Source of the DNA: Bacteroidota bacterium
GTDB lineage: Bacteria > Bacteroidota > Rhodothermia > Rhodothermales > JAHQVL01
Assembly: GCA_039111535.1 (NCBI GenBank)
Contig: JBCCIM010000004.1
Span: forward strand, 1,722-65,721
Direction of reading: 5' to 3'
Length of the DNA stretch: 64,000 nt
Shown: positions 1 to 20,916 of the stretch, in pieces
How positions within the stretch are numbered: the first letter of the stretch is position 1
How the letters are laid out: each line of letters opens with the position of its first letter
The notes under the pieces: model-generated
What the model was told of the DNA's origin: nothing
Seen by the model: the letters and a program-made list of their open reading frames with translations, nothing else
The model's database searches: none
Made by a program: the position numbers and the translations under genes

Positions 1-927
1 GATTTGCAACTGGATCTGCTGAACAGGGAAGCGCAGTTTTATGAGACGATGAACTTCTTGCGGGAGGCACGCCTCTCCATGGAGCAAAATACGCTCAACC
101 TCCGCCAGCAGATTGTGGAGATCAATTACCAGATCACCCGCCTGCAGCGGCAGCACGCGCGTAATGAAGAGCTATTTAGCAAAGAGCTGATTTCAGACAA
201 CGATTACCATGAAGTGGCTGATGAACTGGAATATCAGAAACAGCGCAGAACGCTTACCCTGGCTTCACACAAGCAGGATTCCCTGATGCGGCTTGTACAG
301 GTAAGCTCACTGGAATCTTCGGTTGAGCGGTTGCAACGCAACCTTGATGTGGTGCGGGCGAACCTGGAAAACCTCGTGGTTCGCGCGCCGATTGCCGGCC
401 AACTTACCTCTTTTGATGTGGAAGTAGGGGAAGCCATTGGCGTCAGCCGGCGCATCGGGCAAATAGACAAACTCGATGGCTTTCGGGTCAATGTGCCCAT
501 TGATGAACATTACCTGACCCGCATCAACACAGGACAAATGGGGTCTTTCACCCTCGCGTCGTCAGACTATGCCTTGCAGATCCGGAAAGTTTACCCGGAA
601 GTGCAAAATGGGCGTTTTGAAGTCGACATGGAATTTACCGATGAAAGCCCGGCCGGCATTCGCCGAGGGCAGACCCTTCGCATCCGATTGGAACTGGGTG
701 ACCTGACCGAGGCGCTGCTGGTGCCCAAAGGCGGATTCTTCCAGCAAACGGGTGGCAACTGGATTTTTGTTGTTGAAAATGGCGAGGCCACGCGACGCGA
801 TATCCAGTTGGGCCGGCAAAACCCGCAGTTTTATGAAGTGCTTTCTGGCTTGCAGCAAGGAGAGCGCGTCGTTACATCTTCTTACGATACGTTTGGCAAC
901 GTGGACCGCCTGGTGCTCCAGGAGTAA
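1..927 (+). CDS. HlyD/MacA-type periplasmic adaptor (membrane fusion protein), N-terminus cut by window edge
   Basis: The frame is open from base 1. A coiled-coil-like segment (QQIVEINYQITRLQRQHARNEELF) is followed by a beta-rich C-terminus (GNWIFVVENGEATRRDIQLGRQN). It lies directly upstream of an ABC ATPase and FtsX permeases, as in macAB-type operons. Confidence 0.75.
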   Translation, partial: DLQLDLLNREAQFYETMNFLREARLSMEQNTLNLRQQIVEINYQITRLQRQHARNEELFSKELISDNDYHEVADELEYQKQRRTLTLASHKQDSLMRLVQVSSLESSVERLQRNLDVVRANLENLVVRAPIAGQLTSFDVEVGEAIGVSRRIGQIDKLDGFRVNVPIDEHYLTRINTGQMGSFTLASSDYALQIRKVYPEVQNGRFEVDMEFTDESPAGIRRGQTLRIRLELGDLTEALLVPKGGFFQQTGGNWIFVVENGEATRRDIQLGRQNPQFYEVLSGLQQGERVVTSSYDTFGNVDRLVLQE

Positions 928-984
928 GGTGCACACACCCAAAGCCACGTTCCTCTGAACTTATTCTGAATAGAACCTAACGTT

Positions 985-1680
985 ATGATTCGCACTAAGA
1001 ACCTGACCAAAGTATACCGCACGGAAGACATTGAGACCTCAGCCCTGGGCGGCGTAGATATCGAAATCCAGGCCGGAGAGTTTGTATCAATCATGGGACC
1101 CTCCGGGTGCGGCAAGTCTACTTTGCTGAACATTCTTGGCCTGCTCGACAATCCTTCCGGCGGCGCCTACCATTTCTTCGGCGAAGAAGTTGCCGGCTTT
1201 ACAGAGCGGCAACGCGCCGGCCTCCGCAAAGGCAGCATCGGGTTTGTCTTCCAAAGCTTCAACCTGATCGACGAGCTGTCGGTTTTTGAAAACGTAGAAC
1301 TGCCACTGCTCTATATCGGCGTGAATGCCAAGGAGCGCGAAGAGAAAGTACACGCGGCGCTAGACCGGGTAGGAATGATGCACCGCCGCAAGCACTTCCC
1401 GCAACAACTCTCAGGTGGACAGCAGCAGCGTGTTGCCATAGCGCGGGCTGTGGTAGCCATGCCCAAGTTGATCCTTGCTGACGAACCTACGGGTAACCTG
1501 GATTCGGCGCATGGACAGGAAGTGATGAAGCTGCTGACTGAGCTCAACGAAGCCGGCACAACAATCATCATGGTAACGCACTCGCCAGCAGACGCTGAGT
1601 ATAGCCACCGCGTGATTCACTTGTTTGACGGACACGTCGTGAGCGAGAACTTCATGCGCGAAAAATACGCCCTCAACTAG
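985..1680 (+). CDS. ABC transporter ATP-binding protein (MacB/LolD-type NBD), copy 1
   Basis: Walker A GPSGCGKST, signature LSGGQQQRVAIARA, Walker [14 protein letters not shown]-loop VTHS. Confidence 0.95.
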   Translation: MIRTKNLTKVYRTEDIETSALGGVDIEIQAGEFVSIMGPSGCGKSTLLNILGLLDNPSGGAYHFFGEEVAGFTERQRAGLRKGSIGFVFQSFNLIDELSVFENVELPLLYIGVNAKEREEKVHAALDRVGMMHRRKHFPQQLSGGQQQRVAIARAVVAMPKLILADEPTGNLDSAHGQEVMKLLTELNEAGTTIIMVTHSPADAEYSHRVIHLFDGHVVSENFMREKYALN

Positions 1681-1782
1681 GCGCTGTCCAATAATAAAAA
1701 ACAGCCAGCACCTATCCCGAACCTGATCCGGGATCTCATGACACGGTAGTGAAGGACCATCCTGTACTTAAACCCACCCGCT

Positions 1783-4143
1783 ATGCTAAAGAACTATTTC
1801 AAAATCGCCGGTCGCAATCTGCGGCGCAACCTGGGATATACCTCCATCAATATAGGCGGCCTGGCGGTTGGTATTGCGTGTGTCTTGCTCATTCTGGCAT
1901 ATGTCCGCGATGAGGCGGGGTACGATGATTTTCATGTGGATGCTGAACGCATTTATCGTGTGCATGTCGGGGAAGACCAGGAAGTGACACCGACAGCCAT
2001 TGCGCCCGTTTTGAAGCGTAGTGTCCCTGAAGTGGAAGCCGTAACGCGGCTGTATGACGTCGGGCGATTCCAGCCCCCCGTTGTACGACGCGGGACCATG
2101 CAAGCGCTCGAATCGAGCTTCTTCTATGCGGATTCAACCGTGTTTGATGTGTTTTCGCTACCCCTTGTGGTAGGGAGTCCATCTGATGCTCTCAGCCGGC
2201 CCCGAACCCTGGTTATCTCACAGACCCTGGCAGCCAAATACTTTGGGGATGAGAACCCGATCGGCCAGACCCTGGAAATCGGTCAGCGGCGGACCCCATT
2301 TGAAATAACCGCTGTAATGGCAGATCTCCCGAGTCAGTCTCACGTCCAGTTTGGTTTGATGGCATCATTCAATACAACCGGATGGGCAGATCGGGAGATT
2401 TGGGATTCTGCCAACTTCTTTACCTATGCAAAACTGGTTAATGCCGGCGCTGCATCAGCTGTATCTGCAAAAATGGCTAACCTTGTAGAGGAAGCACGGA
2501 TAAGTGGATTGGTTGATGATGACTACAGCCTGTCGCTGTTTCCGCTGATAGGGATACATCTCGATTTTGAAGGACGGTCGATTTATCTGTACCTGTTGTC
2601 TGCCATTGCATTGATGATTTTGCTGATTGCCTGCGTGAACTACATTAACCTGGCAACTGCTCGTGGGGCTCGGCGCGCGCGGGAAGTCGGGGTGCGCAAG
2701 GTAGCTGGCGCAGAGCGGTTGCAGCTGATAAACCAGTTTCTGAGCGAATCGGCGCTAACAACCTTGCTTGCCTTGGGTTTGGCTGTATTGATAGCTGAAC
2801 TCGCACTGCCCTTTTTCAACGACATCACTGGCAAAACGCTGGACTTGAACTACTTTGCTGATCCCATGCTTTGGGTGAGTATGGCCGGCATATTATTGCT
2901 TGTTGGCATTGCCGGTGGAGCGTACCCGGCGTTTATGCTCTCATCGTACGAGCCCGGGCATATATTCAAAACGACATCGCAAGCCGGAACGGGCGGAAGC
3001 GGGCTGCGGCGCTCACTTGTGGTTTTTCAATTCTCTGTATCAGTGGTGCTGATTGTAGGTACCGCGGTCATTTACCAGCAATTGCGCTACATACAGGACA
3101 AAGACCTGGGGTTCAACAAAGAGCAACTTGTTGTTTTGCCGATGGGACTCGGGAATGCCATTGAAGAATCCTATCCATCGATTCGGGGTGCCCTGTTGCA
3201 GGAAACGCAGATTGAGAGCGTGGCTGCCATCAATCACATTCCAGGGTACCAGGAAGGCGGCTACGGGTTTTGGGCAGCCGGCGTATTTGAAGACAGTAAC
3301 ACACTGCCTGATATCGGTGGGGTGCCTTCAGATCCGCATGTGGTTGAAACACTGGGACTTCGGCTGGTTGCCGGCCAGGACTTTCTTCCAATGACTGCCG
3401 ATTCCATCACTTCCGGTACGTACCAATATCTCCTGAATGAGGCGGCTGTAGCAGAAGCCGGCTGGACACCCGAAGAAGCCATCGGCAGGCGGATTGCGCT
3501 GTCTGGAAACCGTATGGGTGCCGTCCGGGGCGTCATTGCAGACTATCACTTCCTTTCGCTCCACGAGAAAATTCAGCCCCTGGCTTATTTTTATGAGCCT
3601 TCAGGCTGCAACTACATGCTGGTGCGGCTTGCCGCTGGCAATACTTCAGAAGCAATGGAGCGGGTGGCTGAAGTCTGGGCCGCCATGTTGCCTGACAGGC
3701 CATTCAATTACACATTCCTTGATGACGAAATCGGCGCGCTCTATCGCAGTGAGCAGCAAACAAGCCGCGTGTTTTTCCTCTCTGCAATGCTTGCCATTTT
3801 TATCGCCTGTCTGGGCCTGTTTGGGCTAGCTGCTTTCACCACGGCGCAGCGGCGGAAAGAAGTAGGCATCCGCAAAGTGATGGGCGCGAGTGTTTGGCAG
3901 GTCATGGTGCTCCTGACCAAAGAGTTTTCCTGGCTGGTTGTGCTTGGGTTTGGCATTGCAGCGCCAATTGCCTTTGCAATCACGCAGCAGTGGCTACAGA
4001 ATTTTGCATACAAAGCGCCTCTTTCGATCTGGCTATTCCTTACAGCCGGCCTGCTTGTACTCTGTATCGCATGGTTCACGGTTGGCTACCAGGCGTTTCG
4101 TGCAGCGCGTGTCAATCCGGTTAATGCACTACGCTATGAGTAG
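1783..4143 (+). CDS. ABC transporter permease, duplicated FtsX / MacB periplasmic-core architecture (paralog 1)
   Basis: 786 aa. N-terminus is MLKNYFKIAGRNLRRN followed by a TM segment. There are two FtsX-type modules (REVGVRKVAGA and KEVGIRKVMGA, each followed by TM helices). C-terminal tail is ARVNPVNALRYE. Confidence 0.9.
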   Translation: MLKNYFKIAGRNLRRNLGYTSINIGGLAVGIACVLLILAYVRDEAGYDDFHVDAERIYRVHVGEDQEVTPTAIAPVLKRSVPEVEAVTRLYDVGRFQPPVVRRGTMQALESSFFYADSTVFDVFSLPLVVGSPSDALSRPRTLVISQTLAAKYFGDENPIGQTLEIGQRRTPFEITAVMADLPSQSHVQFGLMASFNTTGWADREIWDSANFFTYAKLVNAGAASAVSAKMANLVEEARISGLVDDDYSLSLFPLIGIHLDFEGRSIYLYLLSAIALMILLIACVNYINLATARGARRAREVGVRKVAGAERLQLINQFLSESALTTLLALGLAVLIAELALPFFNDITGKTLDLNYFADPMLWVSMAGILLLVGIAGGAYPAFMLSSYEPGHIFKTTSQAGTGGSGLRRSLVVFQFSVSVVLIVGTAVIYQQLRYIQDKDLGFNKEQLVVLPMGLGNAIEESYPSIRGALLQETQIESVAAINHIPGYQEGGYGFWAAGVFEDSNTLPDIGGVPSDPHVVETLGLRLVAGQDFLPMTADSITSGTYQYLLNEAAVAEAGWTPEEAIGRRIALSGNRMGAVRGVIADYHFLSLHEKIQPLAYFYEPSGCNYMLVRLAAGNTSEAMERVAEVWAAMLPDRPFNYTFLDDEIGALYRSEQQTSRVFFLSAMLAIFIACLGLFGLAAFTTAQRRKEVGIRKVMGASVWQVMVLLTKEFSWLVVLGFGIAAPIAFAITQQWLQNFAYKAPLSIWLFLTAGLLVLCIAWFTVGYQAFRAARVNPVNALRYE

Positions 4144-4196
4144 GGCATATGGGTACCCGGTGATACGCATCAAATGGCTTTAAACAGATCAACACC

Positions 4197-6602
4197 ATGC
4201 TCAAGAATTACCTCAAAGTAGCTTTCCGAAACCTGCGCCGGCATCCCGGACAGACAGGCATCAACATCGTTGGGCTCGGTATGGGCATTGCCTGTGCCAT
4301 GCTTGCCATGCTGTTTCTGCATAACGAGGTCACGTACGACAAATTTCACGATGATATAGATGATATCTACCGGGTGACGTCGCGTTTTGCCAAAACCATC
4401 CAGTTTACTGTTGTCCCAGATCCGATGGTGCCGGCGGCAATTGAAGAGATCCCGGACATCGTTGATGGCACCAGGGTTTGGGCCAGTGAAGTGCTCATTG
4501 CACAAGATACCGAGTTGTACGAGGAGCAGGCATCGTACGTAGATCCTTCGTTTTTTGATGTGTTCTCGTTTCCATTGCTCTCGGGGTCGCGTGTTTTTGA
4601 TAAGCCACATGAAGTGATGCTTTCGCCGGCGCTTGCAAAGAAATATTTTGGCGAAACGAACCCGATAGGGCAGACCCTTTCTTTGCAACTCAATGAAGGC
4701 TTTCAGGCCTATACGGTGGTTGGGGTAACCGCACCCGTCCCCGAAAACTCGTCCATCGATTTTGACATGCTGCTTCCCTTTTCTCAGCGGTATGAACTGA
4801 AAGACCCTGCAGATGAAGAATCATGGGCGAGTTATGGGGTGACCGGGTTTATTCAATTGCGGGCAGATGCGGACACCGCGGCGGTTAGCCAGCAATTGCT
4901 CTCCCTGCTCGATAAGTACAGTGGGGAGCGGATTCGGGAGGAAGAGGCTGCACTGACAGACTATGCGTTTCTCCTTTCCCCACTGGCAAAACACCACCTC
5001 GCCGGGACGGGTCTGGGCGGGCACGGGATTTCATCGGGTACCAACCCGTCGTATGTCTACATCCTCTCAGTTATTGCTGGCCTTGTGCTGTTGATTGCCT
5101 GTTTTAACTTTATGAATTTGTCGATTGGACAGGCTTCGAGTCGGCTTAAGGAAGTGGGGGTGCGCAAGGTCATCGGCGCGGCGAGAAAGCAGCTTGTTTT
5201 GCAGTTTAGCTTTGAAGCGTTATTACTCAGCGCAATTGCTGCTGCCATAGGCGGGATCCTCGTGTATATCGCGTTGCCACATTTCAACAATTTAACGGGT
5301 AGTGCACTTTCCGTCGCATTTGTTGATGGGCCGCTTGTGGCGGGTACGTTTCTCTTTGTCACATGTACAACGGCTTTCTTCGCCGGCGCCTATCCCGCGA
5401 TCATGCTGGCCGGCGTTGGTTCTATGGCGGCTTTTGGAGGCAAATACAAATTTGGCGGGGCCAATTTCTTTACCCGGTCACTTGTTGTGTTACAGTTTGC
5501 CTGCACCATCATGTTTCTGATCGGGACGGTGTTTGTGAGCCAGCAGCAAGCGTTCATGCGCAATGCAAGCCTTGGCTTCGAGCAAGAGCAGCTTGTTGTG
5601 TTGCCCGTTTCAGCACCATCAAATCAGCCACAAGCCGGCGCGCAGCTGCTTGAACGGTTTCAGGCACATATGAATGGACATCCAACGGTCCACGCAATTG
5701 TCGGCACCTCCAATGCATTTGCTGATGGCAATTCAGCAACCATGAAAACCCTCGAAGACGGACGGCAGCAGATTCTCTACACCTACCGGGTTGACAATGC
5801 TTTTGTGGATGTAATGGAAATACCCGTCGCAACTGGCCGCAACTTCGACGCATCGAAACCTACCGATGCCCAGGCCGGCATTCTGGTCAATGAAGCGTTT
5901 GCCCGGGTGTTTGCTATGGATAATCCCGTCGGACAAGTGGTGCCAGTTGACCTGGTTGGTATCGACAATCCTGTTATTCTCGGGGTTATGGAAGACTTCC
6001 ATTTTGAAAGCCTGCACCAGCAAATCAAGCCGGTATTCTTCCATCAGCAAGCTGGCAATTACAAAATCAATTTCTTGCTGGCCCGCATTGCACCACACGA
6101 TGTGCCGGCCAGTATCGACGCGTTGCGGGCTGCATGGGGCGAATTGCAGCCCGGTTATCCTTTTGACTACTACTTCCTCGATGAAGCCATCGATGCCCAG
6201 TACCAGGCTGAAGAAAGATGGGCACGTGCCATGCGCTATGCGTCCTGGATTGCCATTTTCATCGCATGCCTGGGTTTACTCGGACTGACCTCAATCACCA
6301 TGTCCAAACGCACCAAAGAAATCGGAATCCGCAAAGTGCTCGGCGCTTCTGTGCCCGGATTGGTGCAACTGCTTTCTCGTGAGTTTGCGGTGCTTGTTGT
6401 CCTTGCAAACGTACTTGCGTGGCCCCTGGCCTTTTTCGCACTGGAGTGGTGGCTTGGGGCTTTCTCCTACCAGATCGATTTGAGCCTCATTGTTTTTGCC
6501 GGCATCGGTTTGCTCACGCTGGGCATCGCCTTGCTCACGATCAGCTTTCAAAGTATCAGAACGGCCCGGGCAAATCCTGTTTCAGCACTGCGATACGAAT
6601 AG
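4197..6602 (+). CDS. ABC transporter permease, duplicated FtsX/MacB type (paralog 2)
   Basis: 801 aa. Same N-terminal signature (MLKNYLKVAFRNLRRH). Motifs KEVGVRKVIGA and KEIGIRKVLGA. Tail ARANPVSALRYE. Confidence 0.9.
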   Translation: MLKNYLKVAFRNLRRHPGQTGINIVGLGMGIACAMLAMLFLHNEVTYDKFHDDIDDIYRVTSRFAKTIQFTVVPDPMVPAAIEEIPDIVDGTRVWASEVLIAQDTELYEEQASYVDPSFFDVFSFPLLSGSRVFDKPHEVMLSPALAKKYFGETNPIGQTLSLQLNEGFQAYTVVGVTAPVPENSSIDFDMLLPFSQRYELKDPADEESWASYGVTGFIQLRADADTAAVSQQLLSLLDKYSGERIREEEAALTDYAFLLSPLAKHHLAGTGLGGHGISSGTNPSYVYILSVIAGLVLLIACFNFMNLSIGQASSRLKEVGVRKVIGAARKQLVLQFSFEALLLSAIAAAIGGILVYIALPHFNNLTGSALSVAFVDGPLVAGTFLFVTCTTAFFAGAYPAIMLAGVGSMAAFGGKYKFGGANFFTRSLVVLQFACTIMFLIGTVFVSQQQAFMRNASLGFEQEQLVVLPVSAPSNQPQAGAQLLERFQAHMNGHPTVHAIVGTSNAFADGNSATMKTLEDGRQQILYTYRVDNAFVDVMEIPVATGRNFDASKPTDAQAGILVNEAFARVFAMDNPVGQVVPVDLVGIDNPVILGVMEDFHFESLHQQIKPVFFHQQAGNYKINFLLARIAPHDVPASIDALRAAWGELQPGYPFDYYFLDEAIDAQYQAEERWARAMRYASWIAIFIACLGLLGLTSITMSKRTKEIGIRKVLGASVPGLVQLLSREFAVLVVLANVLAWPLAFFALEWWLGAFSYQIDLSLIVFAGIGLLTLGIALLTISFQSIRTARANPVSALRYE

Positions 6603-6651
6603 GTATTCGCCTTTTTGTCCTTATTCAAGCTATAAAACCAAAAAGCTGCAC

Positions 6652-9048
6652 ATGCTCAAGAGTTATTTCAAAAGCGCATTGCGGAGCCTGCGGATGCAAC
6701 CCGGGCTTGCACTTATCAACCTGTTTGGGCTGGCGGTTGGATTGGCCTGCTGCATCTTAATTACGCTTTACCTGCAAGATGAACTCGGATACGATTCTTA
6801 TCACGAAAATGGCCCGCAGATTCACCGTGTTGTGATCGATTACACAACAAACGGCGTCAAGCGCGAGCAGGGGTATACGCAGGGCATGCTGGCGCCGCTG
6901 CTAAAAGAAGAAATCCCCGAAATCAGTGATGCTGTACGATTGCTGGGCACCGGGGGCATCATGAGCTACGGAGACCGGCAGTTCAACGAAACGCGGCTTA
7001 TTGTATCAGACCCGGCTGTGTTTTCTGTTTTCAGTTTTGAACTGCTTCGGGGTGCGCCTGAAGAGGTGTTGTCAGCGCCCGGCAGTATTGTGCTTACGGA
7101 AATGATGGCTGAAAAATACTTTGGCCGTGCTGATCCTATTGGAGAAGTGTTACAGTTTAGCAACGACCGTCAATTGACCGTCACCGGCATTGTAGCTGCA
7201 CCGCCGGCGCAATCACACTTCACATTTGAAGGCATTATTTCCATGGCCACGCTGGACACTGCAGATGCGCCTTCGTGGATGTTCAGCGAATGGCTGTCTA
7301 CTTTTGTACAGACGTACGTGTTGCTCGGCGAGGGCACCACTGCACCACAGGTTGAAGCAAAAATTGCTGGCCTTGTTGAGCGCCGCGCCGGCGAAATGAT
7401 GCGAGGCGCCAACCGATGGGTTGACCTGTACCTTGAACCCTTATCTACGATTTATTTGACCTCTGAACGCGACGGGCTGGGAACGCGGGGCAGCCTGACC
7501 AATCTGTATGTGTTTGGGTTTATTGCCGGCTTTATTCTGCTGATTGCGTGTATCAATTTCATGAACCTCGCCACGGCGAGGGCCATGCGGCGCGCACGAG
7601 AAGTAGGGGTAAGGAAGTCTCTTGGGGCAGCCCGTCAACAGCTGGTTTTACAGTTTTTGCTAGAGGCGCTTTTTACTACGTTACTGGCTACGGCATTGGC
7701 TGTCGGGTTGGCTGGCTTGAGCATGGGGGCCTTTAATGATCTTGCTGGCAAATCCCTCGGGATACAAGCATTGCTTGATGGCCGCAATTTACTCGTGCTA
7801 TTTGCAATGGTAGGCATTGTAACCTTGCTTGCCGGCAGTTATCCCGCGCTGGTATTGTCTGGGTTTGAGCCCATGGGTGTGTTGAAAGGCAAAATGGGGA
7901 ACTGGCGTAGGGGGGAGGGCTTGCGTAAATCGCTCGTTGTATTCCAATTTGCAATCTCGATTGCGCTGATCGTGGCGACGGGCGTGGTGTACTACCAACT
8001 GCAATTTATGAAAGGCCAGCAGCTAGGCTTCGAAAAAGAGCAGGTGCTTGTCCTGGATTTTCAGGGAGATGATGAGGTACAGCAACAACTGCCTGCCATT
8101 AAATCTGAAATGCGCCGGCAGCCGGGGGTACTGGCCGTTTCAACATCGCAAACGGTACCTGGTCGTGGCTTGCCAGCAAGTGGCGGTGCGGTGCAACTCG
8201 CGGATGGCGTTTCGCAGGATATAAGCGTTGGACTGTACATGGTAGATTTCCCGTTTGTTGACTTGTACCAAATGGAAATGGTTGCCGGCCGTGATTTCAA
8301 TAGCCAGATCGCTTCAGATTCTACGGCGGCGCTCCTCTTGAATGAAACAGCTGTTGCCCAACTGGGCCTGTCTTCTCCCGAAGATGCCCTTGGGCTTGAA
8401 GCAAGCTTCTGGGGTAATGCTGGCCGTGTTGTGGGCGTAGTCCGCGATATTCACCACTTCGCCTTGCAAACCAGCGTTACGCCGATGGCCTTGCGGATTG
8501 ATCGGGATAACCAGTCCCTCTTTTCCGTGCGCATCGCACCAGAGAACATTTCACAAACAGTGGCGGCGTTGCAGGGCGTATGGCAGCAGATGGTACCAAG
8601 CCGGCCTTTTACTTACGAATTTTTGGATGAAACCTTTGATGCCCAGTATCGCGCTGAAGAACGGTTTGGTCGTGTCTTTTTTGTCTTCACCGTGCTGGCA
8701 TTGCTGATCGCGTGCCTCGGACTATTTGGGCTTGCTGCCTACACCGTTGCCTATCGCACCAAAGAAATTGGAATACGCAAAGTGCTTGGCGCATCAACGC
8801 AATCTGTGATTTTGTTGTTGTCAAAAGACTTTACGCAGCTTGTGCTGATAGCCGTCTGCCTGGCTACGCCGGCTGCTTACTTTGCCATGCAGTCGTGGCT
8901 AGAGGCCTTTCCTTACCGGATCGGTGTGCCGTGGTGGCTCTTTGTAGGCGCCGGCGCACTTGCGCTCATAATCGCGTCCCTCACGGTTGGCGCGCAGTCG
9001 CTTCGCGCTGCCAATACCAACCCGGTAGAAGCACTAAAGCGCGATTAA
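6652..9048 (+). CDS. ABC transporter permease, duplicated FtsX/MacB type (paralog 3)
   Basis: The track ORF starts at 6490 and overlaps paralog 2. The ATG at 6652 gives MLKSYFKSALRSLR, matching the N-termini of the paralogs. Motifs REVGVRKSLGA and KEIGIRKVLGA. Confidence 0.88.
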   Translation: MLKSYFKSALRSLRMQPGLALINLFGLAVGLACCILITLYLQDELGYDSYHENGPQIHRVVIDYTTNGVKREQGYTQGMLAPLLKEEIPEISDAVRLLGTGGIMSYGDRQFNETRLIVSDPAVFSVFSFELLRGAPEEVLSAPGSIVLTEMMAEKYFGRADPIGEVLQFSNDRQLTVTGIVAAPPAQSHFTFEGIISMATLDTADAPSWMFSEWLSTFVQTYVLLGEGTTAPQVEAKIAGLVERRAGEMMRGANRWVDLYLEPLSTIYLTSERDGLGTRGSLTNLYVFGFIAGFILLIACINFMNLATARAMRRAREVGVRKSLGAARQQLVLQFLLEALFTTLLATALAVGLAGLSMGAFNDLAGKSLGIQALLDGRNLLVLFAMVGIVTLLAGSYPALVLSGFEPMGVLKGKMGNWRRGEGLRKSLVVFQFAISIALIVATGVVYYQLQFMKGQQLGFEKEQVLVLDFQGDDEVQQQLPAIKSEMRRQPGVLAVSTSQTVPGRGLPASGGAVQLADGVSQDISVGLYMVDFPFVDLYQMEMVAGRDFNSQIASDSTAALLLNETAVAQLGLSSPEDALGLEASFWGNAGRVVGVVRDIHHFALQTSVTPMALRIDRDNQSLFSVRIAPENISQTVAALQGVWQQMVPSRPFTYEFLDETFDAQYRAEERFGRVFFVFTVLALLIACLGLFGLAAYTVAYRTKEIGIRKVLGASTQSVILLLSKDFTQLVLIAVCLATPAAYFAMQSWLEAFPYRIGVPWWLFVGAGALALIIASLTVGAQSLRAANTNPVEALKRD

Positions 9049-9091
9049 CCCCGGTAACAATAACATTCTCCATTTATCACCGTTGTGAGCC

Positions 9092-11824: not shown

Positions 11825-12511
11825 ATGTTGAAAATAAAAGAGTTAACCAAGTCATACATGCAGGGGTTTTCCCGGCATTTTATCCTGCGCAACATAAACC
11901 TGGAAATCGAGCAAGGGTCGTTTGTCAGCATCATGGGCCCTTCAGGTGCCGGCAAGTCTACCTTGTTGCATATTCTTGGTATGTTGGATGAGCCTTCTAC
12001 CGGAGAATACCTGTTTAACGATGAGCCCGTGCATAAGCTGAGCGAGAAAAAGCGTACAGCATTGCACCGTGAACACATTGGATTTGTGTTTCAGGCTTAC
12101 CACCTGATTGATGACCTCACTGTGTACGAGAACCTGGAAACGCCGCTGCTCTATAAAAAAATCAAAGGCAGCGAACGCAAGAGCATGGTGGCTGAACTAC
12201 TCGACCGGTTCAATATGGTAGCAAAGAAAGACCTGTTTCCCAGCCAGCTTTCAGGCGGGCAGCAGCAACTCGTTGCCATTGCACGCGCCTTGATCATCAA
12301 GCCCCAATTGATCCTCGCAGATGAGCCTACGGGCAACTTGCACTCCAAGCAGGCGGAAGAGATTATGGAAACCCTCAAGAAATTAAACGAAGAGGGCGTG
12401 ACCATTATTCAGGTAACCCACAATGCAGAGTTAGCCGGTTACGGCAACCGCATCATAGAACTGGTAGATGGGCGCGTTGAAGCAGATTATATCCCTGCGC
12501 CGGCAGCTTAA
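11825..12511 (+). CDS. ABC transporter ATP-binding protein (MacB/LolD-type NBD), copy 2
   Basis: Walker [10 protein letters not shown], signature [14 protein letters not shown], Walker [14 protein letters not shown]-loop VTHN. Confidence 0.93.
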
Positions 12512-12625
12512 AGATAGCCTGCAACTGGTCCTTTTGGATTAGCGACAATTCCCTGTTGGTACATGGCATCTTGGGAAGAGATGTTGCATATTAGATGGGC
12601 TTGATCAATCAGAAAGGATCGTTGT

Positions 12626-13198
12626 ATGTCTTCTAATGAGGCTGCCCGGACCACCGTTGCTGCTCTTTTGAGCTGCCGTGAGGATGAAAAGGGGCCTTCG
12701 GTAGATGAATTACTGCCGTTTATTTATGAGGAGTTGCGTGAAATGGCGCACAGGCAACTCGCCCGTGAGCAGGGGCAGCGTACATTACACACCACCGACC
12801 TCGTTCACGAAGCTTACATGCGGCTCGTAGACGATTCCCAGGTTTCGAAAAAAGGCAAGGCCTACTTTTTCTCTGCTGCAGCCAGCGCCATGCGGCGCGT
12901 CCTTGTCGACCAGGCCCGCAAACGGAATTCGAAGAAAAGGGGAGAAGGGATACAGAAGGTCAAGCTGGACGATGTAGAGATTGGTATCAATGCGTTCGCC
13001 GGCAATTTACTCGACCTTGACGACGCACTCAACGAACTCGCTGCTTTTAGCCCGCGCCAGGCCAGGGTGGTAGAATACCGCTTCTTCGGCGGACTCGGCG
13101 TCGAAGAGACGGCTGATATCCTGCAGATTTCGTCCCGCACGGCAACCAATGACTGGAAGCTGGCGCGGGCCTGGCTCCATCGCCGGCTTAAAGCATAA
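12626..13198 (+). CDS. ECF-type RNA polymerase sigma-70 factor (kinase-associated, ECF43/TIGR02999-like)
   Basis: 190 aa. Region 2 is LVHEAYMRLVD. Region 4 HTH is VEETADILQISSRTATNDWKLARAWL. It is followed 21 nt later by a Ser/Thr kinase rather than an anti-sigma factor. Confidence 0.85.
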   Translation: MSSNEAARTTVAALLSCREDEKGPSVDELLPFIYEELREMAHRQLAREQGQRTLHTTDLVHEAYMRLVDDSQVSKKGKAYFFSAAASAMRRVLVDQARKRNSKKRGEGIQKVKLDDVEIGINAFAGNLLDLDDALNELAAFSPRQARVVEYRFFGGLGVEETADILQISSRTATNDWKLARAWLHRRLKA

Positions 13199-13219
13199 TT
13201 TCTCTATCCTTCCCGACCC

Positions 13220-14644
13220 ATGCAGGACCCAGCACACAACAAGGCACCAAGCCGCGAGCAGTGGCAGGCTGTAGAGCAGTTGTTTCTGAAGGCACTCGAA
13301 CTGCCTACCGATAAAAGGGCCGCTTTCCTCGATGACGCTTGTGTAGCGGATACTACGCTACGCGAAGAGCTAGACTCATTACTGGCGGCCCACGATGAAC
13401 AGCATGGATTCCTCGACGAAATGGATGCGTCGAGCGCTGTTGCCTTAATGCACGACATGCAGCCTGAAGCGGCTCGAACCTATGGTGCGTATCAAGTGGT
13501 ACGGGAAATTGGGCGTGGCGGGATGGGGAAAGTATATCTCGCAGAGCGCAGAGACGGACAGTTTAGTCAGCAAGTAGCCCTTAAGGTGGTCAAGGGCGGG
13601 TTAGATACCGCCGGCATTTCTCAGCGTTTTCTGCAGGAACGGCAGATTCTGGCGCAATTGCAGCACCCCAATATTGCCAGGCTCCTTGACGGTGGATTGA
13701 GTACAGCTGGAGACCCGTACTTCGTGATGGAATACATCGACGGACAGCCATTGTTGATGTATTGCGATGCACAGCGTCTTTCCGTGGATGCCCGCATCCG
13801 TTTGTTTGTGAAAGTGTGTGAGGCGGTTCAGTATGCGCATCAGAATCTTATCGTACATCGTGACCTGAAGCCGGGCAATATATTGGTAACGCCGGCTGGG
13901 GATGTAAAGCTGCTGGATTTCGGCATAGCAAAGCTGATTGCGGACGGCGAAATGGAGGCGCCGGAGCCACTCACGGAAACTGGCTTTAAGGCAATGACAC
14001 CCGAATATGCCTCTCCAGAGCAAGTGCGGGCTGAAGTCATTACAACAGCTACTGACGTTTATGCACTGGGCGTCATTCTGTACGAAATGCTCGTGGGTTG
14101 CCGGCCCTACCAGTTTGATCGGCGATCGATGCAGGAAGTGGTGCAGGCGATTTGCATAAATGAGCCGGCGCGACCGCTCCGGGCCCTCGATTTGCCAGCT
14201 TTGAACCTGCATCCCGTGCCTCAAATAGCTGCAAACCGTGGTCTTTCAATGCCTCGTTTGCAGCGCACGCTGAAAGGTGATGTCGAAGCAATTTTGCTGA
14301 AAGCGTTGCAAAAAGAATCTTCAGCGCGCTACGCCACGGTACAGGCCATTCGCGAAGACCTCGAACGGTATCTGGCGCGTTTACCTGTGAAATCACGTGC
14401 CGGTTCGCTCGGGTATGTATTCAACAAATTTATCCGTCGGCACCGGTTTGCTGTAGCTGGTTTGGGCTTATTTATTCTCTGTCTTGCAGTGTTCAGTATT
14501 GTGCTGGGCGTGCAGGCAAACCGGTTGGCTGCAGAACGCGACCGAAGCCAACGTGAGGCTGAGAAAGCAGTTGCTGTGGCAGACTTTCTGGAAAGTATCT
14601 TGAGTCAACACGTGCCACATTGGGGAATAGCGATGAGCCAGTGA
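13220..14644 (+). CDS. Ser/Thr protein kinase (Hanks type) with one TM helix; upstream part of a frameshift-split kinase-TPR sensor
   Basis: Motifs VALKVV, HRDLKPGNIL, DFGIAK, TPEYASPEQ. TM segment FAVAGLGLFILCLAVFSIVLGV. The ORF ends 24 nt after the start of the next ORF, which lies in another frame. Confidence 0.9.
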   Translation: MQDPAHNKAPSREQWQAVEQLFLKALELPTDKRAAFLDDACVADTTLREELDSLLAAHDEQHGFLDEMDASSAVALMHDMQPEAARTYGAYQVVREIGRGGMGKVYLAERRDGQFSQQVALKVVKGGLDTAGISQRFLQERQILAQLQHPNIARLLDGGLSTAGDPYFVMEYIDGQPLLMYCDAQRLSVDARIRLFVKVCEAVQYAHQNLIVHRDLKPGNILVTPAGDVKLLDFGIAKLIADGEMEAPEPLTETGFKAMTPEYASPEQVRAEVITTATDVYALGVILYEMLVGCRPYQFDRRSMQEVVQAICINEPARPLRALDLPALNLHPVPQIAANRGLSMPRLQRTLKGDVEAILLKALQKESSARYATVQAIREDLERYLARLPVKSRAGSLGYVFNKFIRRHRFAVAGLGLFILCLAVFSIVLGVQANRLAAERDRSQREAEKAVAVADFLESILSQHVPHWGIAMSQ

Positions 14645-16080: not shown

Positions 16081-16123
16081 GTTGTTTAATGTGTGACGAC
16101 GAAAATCCTTCTAACAGTACCAT

Positions 16124-18484
16124 TTGAGTAAGGACTGGGCTATATTTTTCTATACTCACCACCAAGTACAGGAGAACACCGTGGCTGTAGCTCACCTCAG
16201 CAATTTTCGTAGACCCTTTCTGCTCTTCGTATTGTGTATCGCATGGATGTGTGTTACCCCGCTCTATGCGCAGCCAACCGCGCCAGGAGAGTCATCTGAG
16301 AATGTGGGTATAACGCCACAGGCCCGGGCTGTGCGCGTTACCGAAGCGCCGGCACTCGACGGCGACATCCTCAATGATCCGGTCTGGCAGGCAGCTGAGC
16401 CCGTCGAATCCTTCTGGCAAACGACACCGCTGGAAGGTGCACCTGCCACAGAGAGAACCGTAGTGCGCGTGGTTTTTACAGAAAATGCCTTTCATCTTGG
16501 CGTTGTTTGTTATACTGCAGACCCCGACAAAATCATCGTTTCTGATGCTGTCCGCGATGGCGCGCTCAATGGCATAGACAGCTTTCAGTTTATCCTGGAT
16601 ACCTACAAAGATACCCAGAGTGGTTTCGTGTTTGGTACAAGTCCAGCCGGCATCGAATACGATGCACAGGTAACCAACGAAGGTGCTGGTGTTTTTGGGT
16701 TTGCCGGCCAGACGAGCGGCTCAGGAGGCGGACTGAATGTGAACTGGGATGGATCATGGGAGGTCGCATCGAAAATTGGAGATTATGGCTGGAGTGCCGA
16801 GTTCACCATTCCATTCCGGACGCTGAGGTTTCCAAACAAAGACCTCCAAAGCTGGGGTGTTAACTTCCAACGCAATATCCGCCACAACAACGAAGTGGTA
16901 TTCTGGTCAAAGTTGCCCCGGCAGTTCAACCTGTACAAAGTCTCCATGGCCGGCACCCTCGACGGCCTGGAAGTGCCTGATACGCGCAACCTGAAAATCA
17001 TGCCTTATGCGCTCGGGCAGACCAGCATTGACCGTGTTGGCGACGCAGGCGGGGAAACAGGCGACTTTGGTGTAGATGTGAAATACAGCCTCACCCCCAG
17101 CATGGCACTGGACCTGACTTACAACACCGACTTCGCGCAGGTAGAAGTGGATGATGAGCAGGTTAACCTTGATCGGTTTAACCTGTTCTTTCCTGAAAAA
17201 CGCCCGTTCTTCCTGGAAAATGCCGGCTTGTTTTCGATAAAATCAGATGGCAGTATACGGACGGGAAGCGACGTAGAGCTGTTTTTCAGCCGGCGCATCG
17301 GGATCGGACCTAACGGAGAAACGGTGCCGATTATTGGGGGTGCCCGTGTATCAGGCAACGTGGGCAACAACACGAGTATTGGCCTGCTGAACATGCAAAC
17401 CGAAAAAATCGGTGGTATCACAGCGTCCAATAATTTCGCCGTAGCGCGTGTAGAGCAGCAGCTGAAGAACCGCTCTTCGGTTGGTGCTATGTTTGTGAAT
17501 CGAGAGGGCGATAGCGATCTCAGTCTTGATATTCCATACAACCGCCTGATTGGTGTTGACGGACAGTTAGGCATTGGTGACAATACAGAGATCAATGCAT
17601 ACGTAGCGCGTACCTTCTCGCCACATCTCGATGGTCGGCAGTACGCTTATGACATCTCGGCCCGCCGAAGTACCGAGTCATTGCTGATGACTTTCCAGTA
17701 TGCAGAAATTGCAGACAATTTCAATCCGGAAGTAGGCTTTATGGCAAGGCAGAGCTTTCGCAAGTTGAGTACCTTGATTTTCAACACAATTCGCGTAAAA
17801 GATTACTGGAATTTACTCGAAATCCGCCCGCACATTGCCTATCGCAGCTATTGGGGCTATGCTGATGGATTCCATGAAACGAACTTTGTGCACGTTGACA
17901 CGCACTGGGAATGGATGAGTGGCTTCGAAGTGCATACGGGTGTTAACTTCCGTAAAGAAGGCGTACGGAATACGTTCTCACTGGGCGGTGTTGAAATTCC
18001 ATCTGACACCTACGATTGGGCCGAAGCACAGCTTGTGCTGATCACGGATCCGCGAAAAGACGTCAGCTACAGTATTCGTTCATTTATTGGTGGCTTTTTT
18101 GGAGGCCGGCGTATTACCTCTTCTTCAAACTTGAATTTCCGTGGCGGCGAAAAATTCAACGGTCAGGTAACCCTGCAACGCAGCAATGTCTTTCTCGACA
18201 ATGGCGACTTTACAAGCAACCTGTTGCGGACGCGTTTGAGCTACTCGTTTACGCCCCGCATCTTTTTGCAAGGGTTGGCGCAGTACAATGATCTGGCTGA
18301 AATTTGGTCCTTCAACCTGCGGTTTGGCTGGCTGCAATCTGCAAATACAGGCTTGTTTGTGGTATTCAACCAGGCCAGTGCACTCGATCTGGCGGACGAC
18401 GATGGTATCCTTTACGGGTTTGGAGATTTGCAAATTCGCAGCTTGACGCTCAAGTATACCTACTTGTTTGATGTGTTTAAGTAG
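16124..18484 (+). CDS. DUF5916 / carbohydrate-binding-family-9-like outer-membrane protein
   Basis: Signal-like FRRPFLLFVLCIAWMCVTPLYAQ (a GTG at 16181 is an alternative start). N-terminal motif is WQTTPLEGAPATERTVVRVVFTENAFHLGVVCYTADP...DSFQFILDTYKDTQSGFVF. The C-terminus is long and beta-rich, ending LKYTYLFDVFK. Confidence 0.7.
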   Translation: MSKDWAIFFYTHHQVQENTVAVAHLSNFRRPFLLFVLCIAWMCVTPLYAQPTAPGESSENVGITPQARAVRVTEAPALDGDILNDPVWQAAEPVESFWQTTPLEGAPATERTVVRVVFTENAFHLGVVCYTADPDKIIVSDAVRDGALNGIDSFQFILDTYKDTQSGFVFGTSPAGIEYDAQVTNEGAGVFGFAGQTSGSGGGLNVNWDGSWEVASKIGDYGWSAEFTIPFRTLRFPNKDLQSWGVNFQRNIRHNNEVVFWSKLPRQFNLYKVSMAGTLDGLEVPDTRNLKIMPYALGQTSIDRVGDAGGETGDFGVDVKYSLTPSMALDLTYNTDFAQVEVDDEQVNLDRFNLFFPEKRPFFLENAGLFSIKSDGSIRTGSDVELFFSRRIGIGPNGETVPIIGGARVSGNVGNNTSIGLLNMQTEKIGGITASNNFAVARVEQQLKNRSSVGAMFVNREGDSDLSLDIPYNRLIGVDGQLGIGDNTEINAYVARTFSPHLDGRQYAYDISARRSTESLLMTFQYAEIADNFNPEVGFMARQSFRKLSTLIFNTIRVKDYWNLLEIRPHIAYRSYWGYADGFHETNFVHVDTHWEWMSGFEVHTGVNFRKEGVRNTFSLGGVEIPSDTYDWAEAQLVLITDPRKDVSYSIRSFIGGFFGGRRITSSSNLNFRGGEKFNGQVTLQRSNVFLDNGDFTSNLLRTRLSYSFTPRIFLQGLAQYNDLAEIWSFNLRFGWLQSANTGLFVVFNQASALDLADDDGILYGFGDLQIRSLTLKYTYLFDVFK

Positions 18485-18562
18485 GGAGTTAGGAGAGAGG
18501 AGTGTTGAGTTTGGAGTGTTGAGTTTGGAGAGTGGAGGGATAATCATGTGAGACTCGACACG
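18485..18562 (+). repeat. heptamer-phased G/T-rich repeat directly after a stop codon
   Basis: After the TAG at 18482-18484 come eight in-phase heptamers: GGAGTTA GGAGAGA GGAGTGT TGAGTTT GGAGTGT TGAGTTT GGAGAGT GGAGGGA. These are followed by TAATCAT GTGAGAC TCGACAC. Confidence 0.75.
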
Positions 18563-18564
18563 CC

Positions 18565-20916
18565 TCACACGTTGCGCAGTAAATCGGCCGGGTTGGCTTT
18601 GCTTAGGCGGAATACTTGTGACAGCAGTGTGAGGCCGGCCAGGAGGACAACAAGGCCAAAGGCAATCATGAACGGTGCCGGGCCAAGTGGCATGTGCTCG
18701 AGGGCAAACTGGTCGAGCATGAGCTTGAGGATGACGAAACCAACGGGTGCTGCCAGTACGCCGGCAATCATTAGCAAGACGGCAAACCGCCGGTTGGTCA
18801 ACTTGACAATCTGCCCAACCGATGCGCCGAGGATTTTGCGGATGCTCATTTCTTTCATGCGGCTCGAAACCTGCTGTGCTGCCAGGCCGAAGAGTCCGGC
18901 GCACGACAGGATGAGGGCAAACAAGGCGGCAAAATAAAAGATGTTGTTGATGCGGCCCGATTCAGCGAAGTAGCCAGCAAATGCCTGATCCTGATAAAAT
19001 GAGCTAAACGTAGTTTCGGGGAAGTTTTCCCGCCAGATGGCCGAGAGTTGATTGGTAATCGCTTGCGTAGCTTTTGGTTGTGTGCGTACCGCTAGAAAAA
19101 TGAACCCGTCACTATCAGTTGTGCGAAGGTAGGCCGGTTCGATGGCATGTGAGAAGTTCTGGAAGTAAAAGTCTTGTACAACACCCGCTACCCGGTACGA
19201 CGTACTGTCCAGCACAACAAGCTGATCAACAGCAGTATATGTACCAAGGAGTTCGGCCATGGATGCATTGATCACCACGTCAGCCGGACCGGCAGGATAT
19301 GTGCCGGCAATTAGTTTGGGGCGCACTACATCAAAATAGGTTGGCGCCACTTCGAATTCGAAGGCAGTATGGGAAGTCTCTGTAAGCTGCAGGTTTACTT
19401 CGTGCAGGGGATATGCACCAATATGGTTATTTGCGCCGGCTACGGCTGTAACGCCAGGTAAGGCGCTTGCAGCCTGGAGCATGGTGCCATAAGATTCTGG
19501 CCCTGTATGGAGGACGATTGTGTCTGCGTTGTCGTACCCCCAATCCGTATGTTGTAAATAGTTTTTGTTTAGCGTGAGGCCTACGCTGACGACCATCGTG
19601 ATCAGGGCAAGTACAAACTGTAGACCCAGCAGCGTCAACATGATGCGCTTCGGACCGCCCATTTGCAGCCGGCCGGAAAAAATGGTTACCGGCTTGAATG
19701 CTGATATGTAAAACGCAGGGTAAAGGCCTGATACAAAGCCCAGCGCCACAACGAGGCATCCCAGGTAAATCCATAAATCGGGCCGGGTCAACAGGTTGAA
19801 GCTGAGGTCGAGTCCATTGGTGATATACGTGAAACCGGGAATTAAAAAGCTCCGCGCTACCAATACGCCAATCACCAGCGCAAGACTACATAGCAAGATG
19901 TTCTCAGACAAAAACTGAAATATGAGTTGCCGTTGCTGGCCGCCCATAACCTTTCGAATCCCAATTTCCTGCATCCGCGTGTGCATGGCGCCCAGCGTGA
20001 TATTCATGTAGTTGAAGCAAGCCAACAAGAATAAAAACAGGGTGATGGTGGATAACACAATAATAGGACCCCAGTTAACCTGGTATGCGATGGTATATTT
20101 GACATCCGTTTTATTGTGCGAAATGTCTTTCAGGTTCTTCAGGTAGAACTGTTGGATCTGGTGTTCGAGCGGGGCTGCGCTTTGTTGTGCAGCCGCATAA
20201 GTTTTCAGGCTTGGGGTAACGGAGGCGCCCACTGCCGGCGTAGCAAGCTCAACAAATGTTGCGCGAACCAGGTTTGTCCAGCTGTTGAAATCGGTATCCG
20301 CTTTTTCCAGTACGTTAATCGGTAGCAGCAACGAAAAGCCAAGGCTGGTATTGGGGGGAAGTTTTTCTACAACACCACGCACGGTAAATGCCTGTTCTGG
20401 CGCGCCATCAATACTGAGATAGAGCAACTGTCCGAATGCTTCCCCTGTCGGGAAGTATTTGGCAGCCATTTCCGGTGTAATGACGATGCCATCCGCTGCG
20501 TGTAGGGCATCCTCGTTACCGGCCTGCATGGGGAAAGAGAACATCGACAGAAAAGAGGGATCAACAAACCGGGCGAACTCGGAGAAGTGGAAATCCTCAG
20601 TGATAACCAACACTTGCGCTTCGGCAACTCGGACGGCGTCATTTACCAGCGCTTGTTCATCGCGTAGTGCCGGCCCAAGCGGAGCCGGCGATTTGCCCCA
20701 AGTTTCGATCACTCCGTTCACGTCCGCTGTATGTTCTACAAGAAAGATTCGATCAGCTTTTTCGTGAAAGGTGTCGCGCTGTAGTTCTGAAAAGACAAAC
20801 AGATACGCAAGAATCCCACATCCCAGTGTGATTGACAGGCCAAACAGATTAATACCCGTTGCAACTTTGTTTTTGAGCAAAGCCCGATAAGCAAGTTTGA
20901 AATAGCTTTTCAGCAT
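18565..20916 (-). CDS. ABC transporter permease, duplicated FtsX/MacB type (paralog 5)
   Basis: 783 aa. N-terminus MLKSYFKLAYRALLKNK. Motifs QEIGIRKVMGG and KEMSIRKILGA. Tail SKANPADLLRNV. Confidence 0.9.
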   Translation of the reverse strand: MLKSYFKLAYRALLKNKVATGINLFGLSITLGCGILAYLFVFSELQRDTFHEKADRIFLVEHTADVNGVIETWGKSPAPLGPALRDEQALVNDAVRVAEAQVLVITEDFHFSEFARFVDPSFLSMFSFPMQAGNEDALHAADGIVITPEMAAKYFPTGEAFGQLLYLSIDGAPEQAFTVRGVVEKLPPNTSLGFSLLLPINVLEKADTDFNSWTNLVRATFVELATPAVGASVTPSLKTYAAAQQSAAPLEHQIQQFYLKNLKDISHNKTDVKYTIAYQVNWGPIIVLSTITLFLFLLACFNYMNITLGAMHTRMQEIGIRKVMGGQQRQLIFQFLSENILLCSLALVIGVLVARSFLIPGFTYITNGLDLSFNLLTRPDLWIYLGCLVVALGFVSGLYPAFYISAFKPVTIFSGRLQMGGPKRIMLTLLGLQFVLALITMVVSVGLTLNKNYLQHTDWGYDNADTIVLHTGPESYGTMLQAASALPGVTAVAGANNHIGAYPLHEVNLQLTETSHTAFEFEVAPTYFDVVRPKLIAGTYPAGPADVVINASMAELLGTYTAVDQLVVLDSTSYRVAGVVQDFYFQNFSHAIEPAYLRTTDSDGFIFLAVRTQPKATQAITNQLSAIWRENFPETTFSSFYQDQAFAGYFAESGRINNIFYFAALFALILSCAGLFGLAAQQVSSRMKEMSIRKILGASVGQIVKLTNRRFAVLLMIAGVLAAPVGFVILKLMLDQFALEHMPLGPAPFMIAFGLVVLLAGLTLLSQVFRLSKANPADLLRNV

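Follow-up and report, generated by a model that had tools for sequence, protein, structure and literature searches.

A 64,000-nt stretch of contig JBCCIM010000004.1 (assembly GCA_039111535.1; a Bacteroidota bacterium of the order Rhodothermales), hereafter the window, encodes a MacAB-like array of ATP-binding cassette (ABC) efflux permeases and, right behind it, an extracytoplasmic function (ECF) sigma factor with a Ser/Thr kinase. We consider it rather probable that these are two independent modules lying side by side: an efflux operon with sigma-54 control of its own, and an ECF43-type sigma/kinase pair that is not the conserved regulator of the pump. A preliminary description of this DNA had named the pair as the pump's regulator; that proposal was built on adjacency, and both the synteny and the promoter comparisons presented here go against it. 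The pair stands between the second ATPase gene of the array and a gene for a DUF5916 protein in one sublineage only, and we find no evidence that places the pump within the sigma factor's regulon.

Distribution of the sigma/kinase pair and of the pump array

Genes were called from a map of open reading frames (ORFs) and from Pfam/NCBIfam profile scans of the window proteins; L-numbers (L002, L082 and so on) denote related loci compared with the window. The association was surveyed from two sides. On the sigma side, all window proteins were searched by tblastn against 10 kb on each side of 80 relatives of the sigma factor. On the pump side, the genes 3' of NBD2, the second nucleotide-binding domain (NBD) gene of the array, were inspected in each locus carrying the gene of a small 90-aa protein as a marker.

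The closest genomes are metagenome-assembled genomes of Rhodothermales, L002 and L003, whose sigma factors are 89% and 59% identical to that of the window; the remaining sigma relatives are found in Acidobacteriota or Planctomycetota, with sigma identities of 42-54%. Only L002 shares the layout of the window: beside the sigma gene, a permease array occurs in none of the 79 other sigma loci. Six of these 79, all acidobacterial, have a single permease within 10 kb; two loci have an NBD, and none has an array. L003 combines its sigma gene with that of a 933-aa kinase-TPR protein, next to a beta-lactamase-family protein sorted by the type IX secretion system and to metabolic genes, with no ABC pump nearby.

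Seen from the pump, the result is similar. Among the arrays with the 90-aa marker and NBD2, sigma factor and kinase are present only in the window, L002 and L088, the last with the same layout and with identities of 65% for the sigma factor, 59% for the kinase-TPR protein and 75% for DUF5916. They are lacking in five array lineages (L083, L084, L086, L087 and L089/L090/L091). In L087, NBD2 (86%) is followed by a 475-nt gap and by the DUF5916 gene (70%), with no remnant of sigma factor or kinase. What lies 3' of NBD2 elsewhere is a DUF5916 paralog on the other strand (L086), an aconitase (L083) or another permease (L089, L090, L091); in L084 the genes run activator, histidine kinase, adaptor, NBD and 90-aa protein, and no permease is close by.

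With permease 4 as query, a scan of metagenomes returned nothing, and one with NBD2 succeeded. Neither sigma factor nor kinase was found in the 36 NBD2-like metagenome loci of at least 8 kb, half of which (18) carry duplicated FtsX permeases, often as tandem sets of three to seven alongside one or two NBD genes; six of the 36 carry a sigma-54 activator. Because the array lineages and these 36 loci do without the pair, it appears to be an accessory of one Rhodothermales sublineage. The earlier observation that several permeases share few NBD genes is real, and this design is common in other loci as well. That sigma/kinase and permease genes go together outside this genome, as the preliminary description implied, holds for L002 and L088; the co-occurrence is narrow and patchy, failing in the five array lineages, the 79 sigma loci and the 36 metagenome loci.

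A predicted sigma-54 control region

The DNA immediately upstream of the window is contained in L082, whose overlap with it is 100% identical. The gene of the periplasmic adaptor, or membrane-fusion protein (4-927, + strand; HlyD_3 7.7e-09, TIGR01730 4e-34), is cut at its 5' end by the window start and is found in full length (440 aa) at L082 1326-2648, identical (100%) over the common part. Divergent from it, L082 2-1114 (- strand) encodes a response regulator with matches to Response_reg (2e-22) and Sigma54_activat (1.6e-65). The 211-bp intergenic region holds a perfect palindrome, GTGTTCGataaCGAACAC, at 1158-1175, and, some 90 nt beyond it, a candidate promoter, TGGCACtgcttTTGG, at 1263-1277, about 50 nt before the ATG of the adaptor.

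The same design recurs in L084 (adaptor 47% identical), with GTGTTCGtaatCGGACAC followed by TGGCACgacccTTGT, and elements at the same position in L113 read CCGTTCGtttcCGAACGG and GGCACaacaaTTGT. The palindrome core TTCG-N4-CGAAC lies 82-105 nt upstream of TGGCAC-N5-TTG in L082 and L084, and about 120 nt upstream in L113. The -24 element is exact (TGGCAC) in L082 and L084 and reads aGGCAC in L113; the exact 18-nt palindrome pattern is confined to L082 and L084 among 92 loci. L082 and L084 resemble NtrC-type sigma-54 operons in their divergent regulator with receiver and AAA+ domains and in the palindrome upstream of TGGCAC-N5-TTG, and L084 also in the histidine kinase gene beside the regulator.

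In L108 the order is activator, TolC-family outer-membrane efflux protein (OEP), adaptor, NBD, two permeases, NBD and three permeases. Its upstream region was tried as further support for sigma-54 and was not counted, having an exact TGGCAC and no recognisable -12 element. Between its adaptor and its first NBD, L108 also has, at 3810-4172, the gene of a '23S rRNA-intervening sequence protein' (PF05635, 3.7e-35). Inside the window, the sigma-54 pattern gave one unrelated match, at 45269.

Altogether, these elements suggest that the pump operon has a conserved, predicted sigma-54 control region of its own. The -24/-12 promoter that precedes the adaptor gene, beyond the window's edge, would be where transcription of the pump begins; it would be activated by the NtrC-type response regulator of the divergent gene, bound to the palindromic upstream site. 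The array operon likely starts outside the window; within it, the gaps upstream of NBD1 (985) and of permease 1 (1783) measure 57 and 102 nt.

Composition of the efflux array

The gene list of the preliminary description (adaptor, NBD1, four tandem permeases of ~790 aa, a 90-aa acidic ORF, NBD2, an ECF sigma factor and a fifth permease on the opposite strand) was confirmed by the ORF map and by Pfam/NCBIfam profiles. NBD1 (985-1680, + strand; ABC_tran 1.4e-33) is a MacB/LolD/DarD-like ABC ATPase, whose top NCBIfam match is DarD with 277 bits against a cut-off of 375. NBD2 (11825-12511, + strand; ABC_tran 1.5e-34) is the most conserved gene of the array. The two are separate proteins of 228-231 aa with 53% identity, and Walker A, LSGGQ and Walker B are intact in both.

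Four permease genes lie in tandem on the + strand between the ATPases: permease 1 (1783-4143, 786 aa; MacB_PCD 8e-28), permease 2 (4197-6602, 801 aa; 2.7e-33), permease 3 (about 6652-9048, 798 aa; 1.3e-28) and permease 4 (9092-11473, 793 aa; 2.5e-37). Although the ORF of permease 3 extends back to 6490, the paralogs align with it only from residue 55 onwards, which sets the real start near 6652. Permease 5 (18565-20916, - strand; MacB_PCD 2e-26) is a divergent, lineage-specific paralog. In all five, FtsX matches in two stretches and MacB_PCD in one or two. Permease 1, a type VII ABC permease of the fused-dimer kind, comprises two MacB-type halves with about 8 transmembrane (TM) helices, as judged from eight hydropathy peaks. 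Permeases 1 and 2 score 294 and 298 bits with the ADOP model TIGR03434, under its cut-off of 622.

The permease N-termini had been called near-identical. They do have a common motif, MLKNYxKxAxRNLxR..G...IN..GL..G.A, whereas identity between the four tandem paralogs is just 32-40%, and 26-29% between these and permease 5; at such values the duplications must be old. Permease 5 is missing at the equivalent position in L088 and in L002, where the DUF5916 gene is directly followed by an outer-membrane protein gene: this divergent paralog was inserted recently, and in the lineage of the window only. In the related arrays L083, L086, L087, L088 and L089, NBD2 is 79-95% identical to that of the window, while the permeases, which vary in number, share 33-55% with any window permease. 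This difference suggests a birth-and-death turnover of substrate-specific permeases, with the ATPase motor staying constant.

The conserved 90-aa protein (11519-11791, + strand) is acidic (19 D+E against 12 K+R), cytoplasmic and without a Pfam match. It has 24 homologues with 53-100% identity, and its family counts 179 cluster representatives at E<=0.001, stand-alone proteins of ~85-100 aa for which there is no Pfam model. In every locus examined the gene adjoins an NBD gene, standing before it in the window, L083 and L086-L089, and after it in L084 and L094. An AlphaFold2 model of low confidence (pLDDT 64) has the order beta-beta-alpha-beta-beta; Foldseek found no match to it in the PDB at E<=0.001.

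In the proposed mechanism, the first module would consist of one adaptor, two soluble NBDs, the tandem fused-dimer permeases and the 90-aa protein. Each ~790-aa permease would be a covalent pseudo-dimer, with two MacB-type halves, two periplasmic core domains and ~8 TM helices, that docks an NBD dimer; the paralogs would therefore draw on a common ATPase pool and probably differ in substrate. Together with the adaptor and an outer-membrane duct encoded elsewhere, this would make up a tripartite exporter of the mechanotransmission type (PMC5985334). No TolC-family OEP was matched among the window ORFs scanned against Pfam, which were longer ones, nor among the listed genes of L082; the TolC-family duct may be encoded elsewhere.

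The array shares with MacAB-TolC the MacB_PCD and FtsX permease, a MacA-like adaptor and a MacB/LolD-like NBD, and the related L108 encodes a TolC-family OEP, as stated above. In contrast to MacB, the NBD of the window is separate rather than fused to the N-terminus of a homodimerising 4-TM permease, and the permease is a fused dimer of ~790 aa. The locus has four to five paralogous permeases, and no TolC gene was matched among the window ORFs scanned.

ADOP (TIGR03434) is the best NCBIfam family for all five permeases, and has the same duplicated MacB_PCD and FtsX architecture in paralog-rich sets. However, the window permeases reach only 181-298 bits against the cut-off of 622.3, the host is not an acidobacterium and no PadR regulator is present. 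In the description of the ADOP family, orphan means that no ABC ATPase gene is adjacent. The permeases of the window are not orphan in this sense: NBD1 and NBD2 flank the array and the adaptor is next to it. Our literature search found ADOP mentioned only in passing.

The combination of a separate NBD with a fused two-half FtsX permease is also that of the darobactin exporter DarBCD and of YbbAP of E. coli, and the Dar system has an adaptor as well. The best NCBIfam matches include DarB, DarC and DarD, all far under their equivalog cut-offs (86-128 bits against 700 for the DarB-like, 167 against 450 for the DarC-like and 250-277 against 375 for the DarD-like proteins), and no darA-like or darE-like genes accompany them. 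The YbbP-type fusion has been described (PMC5985334); in YbbP the halves are linked by two additional TM helices, whereas the hydropathy of the window permease points to ~8 TM helices.

An ECF43-like sigma factor and a frameshifted kinase gene

The sigma factor (12626-13198, + strand) matches PF07638 (1.6e-49) over residues 11-189 of 190, and scores 203.5 bits with TIGR02999, against a cut-off of 126.15; Sigma70_r4_2 matches too, and the protein consists of sigma2 and sigma4 only. In region sigma2.2 it reads HTTD (HTTD-LVHE) where the ECF43 consensus has QTTA and ordinary ECF sigma factors have DAED. An alignment of 82 family members gives Q-x-T-A (Q-T/P/A-T-A) at this place, with Thr in 78. 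A kinase gene lies at most 10 kb from the sigma gene, adjacent or divergent, in 73 of 81 loci; in the window it starts at 13220, 21 nt after the sigma stop codon.

In place of the DAED/DxxD patch, ECF43 sigma factors have in sigma2.2 a motif with a conserved phospho-acceptor Thr, of consensus QTTA (PMC13147305), which is STTA in EcfP and QATE in EcfK (PMC13147305, PMC8999054). About 16% of the members keep one acidic residue (PMC13147305), as does the window sigma factor with the D of HTTD. No anti-sigma Pfam match was obtained for the neighbouring genes (90-aa protein, NBD2, kinase), in a search at Pfam level that a distant or novel type could escape. With TIGR02999 as a proxy for hidden Markov models of the ECF groups, we accept the sigma factor as ECF43-like and as putatively kinase-activated, with no anti-sigma gene beside it, because it passes the TIGR02999 cut-off, its sigma2.2 motif bears Thr and a kinase is near in 73 of 81 loci. 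In both respects, the ECF43 likeness and the missing anti-sigma gene, this agrees with the preliminary description. Where it equates kinase-linked ECF sigma factors with the ECF43 group, however, it is too narrow: ECF59-62, ECF217, ECF267 and ECF283 are kinase-linked as well (PMC7826278). Of these, ECF59-62, ECF217 and ECF283 are possible alternative assignments of the window sigma factor.

The kinase gene (13220-14644, + strand) encodes 474 aa with a Hanks-type Ser/Thr kinase domain (Pkinase 1.5e-46), in which the motifs GRGGMG, VALK, HRD and DFG are intact, and with one TM helix at about residues 410-432. The catalytic domain is preceded by a conserved extension of about 85 residues (13220-13480; …WQAVEQLFLKALELPTDKRAAFLDDAC…LREELDSLLAAH…), which has no Pfam match, can also be aligned with L002 and L003 and might dock the sigma factor. 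The reading frame ends early by a frameshift. The TPR region, a predicted periplasmic sensor part (from about 14603/14620 to 16080, + strand; TPR_12 6.5e-20), follows in another frame than the kinase and TM part, whereas L002 and L003 are uninterrupted (FLESIFESTRAT). One base of a Phe codon (TT-) is missing at about 14600-14602 (+ strand), where the window reads atcttgagtca and L002 reads attttcgaatcc (I F E S); a single T inserted here restores a 953-aa protein collinear with those of L002 and L003. Of the single kinase gene with TM helix and TPR ectodomain that had been described, the domains are all present, but they do not form one ORF.

The 1-nt deletion may be a genuine mutation that inactivates the gene, or else an error of assembly, and the kinase is without its sensor region in this sequence unless the latter applies. 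Short contigs identical to the window occur in the Logan assembly of SRR22824298; two of them, L001 and L092, stop short of the site, and the exact 474-aa ORF is not on record. If the deletion is real, the kinase has lost its sensor region and the sigma factor is orphaned, so that the pair would be decaying, a remnant no longer functional. This is possible, if clearly the less expected case, and it is compatible with two independent modules. The frame is broken relative to both L002 and L003, intact reading frames in all other genes examined within 1-25 kb speak against a generally error-prone assembly, and sister lineages dispense with the module. On the other hand, assembly or consensus building can introduce a difference of a single base in run length, the kinase motifs and the sigma factor are otherwise intact, and no independent contig spanning the site was retrieved.

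In its uninterrupted form, the kinase of the second module would have its catalytic domain in the cytoplasm, joined by one TM helix to a TPR region that senses a periplasmic cue. By analogy with EcfP/PknT and EcfK/PknS, the kinase would phosphorylate the second Thr of HTTD in sigma2.2, allowing the sigma factor to bind core RNA polymerase. The pairs EcfP-PknT of Vibrio parahaemolyticus and EcfK-PknS of Xanthomonas citri likewise join an ECF sigma factor to an adjacent TM Ser/Thr kinase, with no anti-sigma gene and with a Thr-containing sigma2.2 motif. The window differs from them in its Rhodothermales-related host, with the closest sigma relatives outside the order being acidobacterial, in the TPR ectodomain, in the frameshift and in the acidic residue kept in HTTD. 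The known pairs control polymyxin resistance or the type VI secretion system, and no MacB array.

Searches for an ECF-type promoter

Within 160 nt upstream of sigma genes of the TIGR02999/PF07638 family, a strong bipartite motif GgTAAGCGGAAA-N11-AAAACTatAAt was found in 38 of ~77 loci (L004-L081), nearly all from Acidobacteriota, at 16-42 bits, often followed by TATAAT. GgTAAGCGGAAA-N11-AAAACT is probably a family-wide promoter of ECF type, possibly autoregulatory; the Rhodothermales copies lack it. When a position weight matrix (PWM) built on this acidobacterial model was run on the window, L002, L088 and L082, no match scored above shuffled sequence. The sigma upstream regions of the window, L002 and L088 have no exact bipartite word in common. 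Footprinting of the gap between NBD2 and the sigma gene yielded no motif, the window and L002 being too similar to resolve one and the 207-nt gap of L088 unalignable.

The preliminary description had expected a common -35/-10 motif of ECF type upstream of the genes it named. A de novo bipartite search, in which sigma upstream was compared with the regions upstream of the pump, DUF5916, permease 5 and outer-membrane protein genes, stayed at chance level, and no such motif was shared. The set contained the regions named in that description, with the adaptor-NBD1 gap in place of the adaptor upstream region, which lies outside the window, and with the regions upstream of the small ORF and of the sigma gene added. 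A look-alike, AAGCGGAA, upstream of the outer-membrane protein gene was discarded, as it is not conserved in L002.

The gene that follows the kinase (16181-18484, + strand; probable start) encodes a predicted outer-membrane DUF5916 protein with a signal peptide (DUF5916 4.7e-18), whose exact 767-aa product is on record. Its domain assignment was right in part: DUF5916 is found, while no CBM9 domain was detected in the window copy. Identity to the window is 64-75% in L002, L087 and L088; the L086 copy, at 30%, is a paralog. Literature searches returned no mention of DUF5916. The block upstream of the gene (window 16081-16180; CATTTgAg ... CCTATATTT ... AGGAG; TTTG ... TATATTT) is conserved in L002, L087 and L088, and we take it to resemble the Bacteroidetes-type TTTG / TAnnTTTG promoter. 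It is kept with or without sigma factor and kinase. DUF5916 was considered as a target of the sigma factor and judged unlikely, because its promoter-like block persists in L087, which has no sigma gene.

Weighing the alternatives

Several points weigh against two independent modules. In the putative sigma-54 promoters, the -12 element is TTGG or TTGT (L082, L084) or TTGT (L113), as against the canonical TTGC, and in the activator the loop after ESELFGH is GAFTDA in place of the canonical GAFTGA. Neither rpoN nor a cognate histidine kinase was seen for this genome, as the contig ends. The sigma/kinase pair stays beside NBD2 over moderate divergence (65% and 59% in L088), co-oriented and with short gaps, and a functional tie to the pump is possible. 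Finally, the failed ECF motif searches count as weak negative evidence.

Apart from decay of the pair, the alternative that survives best is a read-through cascade, which we nevertheless consider unlikely. The sigma and kinase genes, perhaps with DUF5916, would be the tail of the sigma-54-driven operon, such that the two-component signal inducing the pump also raises inactive sigma factor and kinase, and primes a phosphorylation-gated response elsewhere. Adaptor through DUF5916 do lie on a single strand with gaps of 21-114 nt, and the window's 114-nt gap between NBD2 and the sigma gene contains no convincing terminator or sigma-70-type promoter. In L002, however, this gap (9780-9905) has ~110 extra nt, missing in the window, in which a perfect hairpin GCAAACGCATtaaaATGCGTTTGC and the T-rich sequence behind it are terminator-like; in L088 its 207 nt cannot be aligned with the window, and DUF5916 has a conserved promoter-like block of its own.

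Slightly less credible still is the arrangement proposed in the preliminary description, a phospho-sigma-controlled efflux island in which the ECF43 sigma factor, activated by the TPR-sensing kinase, directly drives transcription of adaptor, NBDs and permeases. The genes are adjacent and co-oriented with short gaps, the layout is the same in L002 and in the more distant L088, ECF sigma factors usually regulate their neighbours, and EcfP/PknT responds to polymyxin (PMC8999054). Yet the pair is missing from five array lineages and from all 36 NBD2-like loci, and the array from all 79 other sigma loci; no bipartite motif is common to the sigma and pump upstream regions, nor to the sigma upstream regions of the window, L002 and L088, and the PWM search was null. 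Moreover, the conserved, predicted sigma-54 module would already explain the regulation of the pump, and the kinase of the window is frameshifted.

It is equally doubtful that, in the sublineage of the window, L002 and L088, the pair was inserted at the 3' end of the array as a second, phosphorylation-gated input on the array or on its outer-membrane partner, through which the cell would combine two-component and kinase-sensed envelope signals to choose among permease paralogs sharing one conserved NBD and the 90-aa accessory.

Flanking genes

The gene beyond permease 5 (21257-24586, - strand; OMP_b-brl_4 7.8e-57; start codon inferred) codes for a large beta-barrel protein of the outer membrane, which carries a CarboxypepD_reg domain at its N-terminus. 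The gene is conserved in L002; we regard it as a neighbour and claim no membership in either module.

A DinB-family gene lies at 25503-26012, and DinB and ApbE genes are also found 3' of the L088 array. The segment 26874-33993 (- strand) begins with ApbE (26874-28034), next to which 28063-29957 encodes an NqrF-like oxidoreductase (Fer2, FAD_binding_6, NAD_binding_1) and an Rnf-Nqr membrane subunit. From the order of its genes it is presumably an operon of the Na+-NQR type; the Pfam scan covered it to 29957. Two ORFs of the window, 52190-54769 (+ strand, 859 aa) and 42280-43545 (+ strand, 421 aa), have no Pfam match at 1e-5; the latter clusters with DUF4350 and DUF58 genes. At 59018-62473 (+ strand), a 1151-aa fusion of a B12-binding domain, a MeaB GTPase and methylmalonyl-CoA mutase has an IcmF-like architecture.

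Significance

No component of the locus is categorically new, and the sigma/kinase pair belongs to the ECF43-type class in a phylum where that class has received little attention. If the sigma factor were coupled to the pump, control of a multi-permease ABC efflux set by a phospho-activated ECF sigma factor would be without precedent, but the comparative evidence lends this no support. The occurrence of an ECF43-like sigma/kinase pair in Rhodothermota is a modest but useful addition, and a by-product worth noting is the promoter motif that precedes the sigma genes in Acidobacteriota. The array itself exemplifies a widespread and little-described operon design, in which a sigma-54 activator and an adaptor accompany one or two NBDs and three to seven fused-dimer permeases of MacB type. 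The uncharacterised 90-aa family tied to the NBD, together with the fast turnover of permeases around an NBD that stays 79-95% identical, offers leads for research on type VII ABC transporters.

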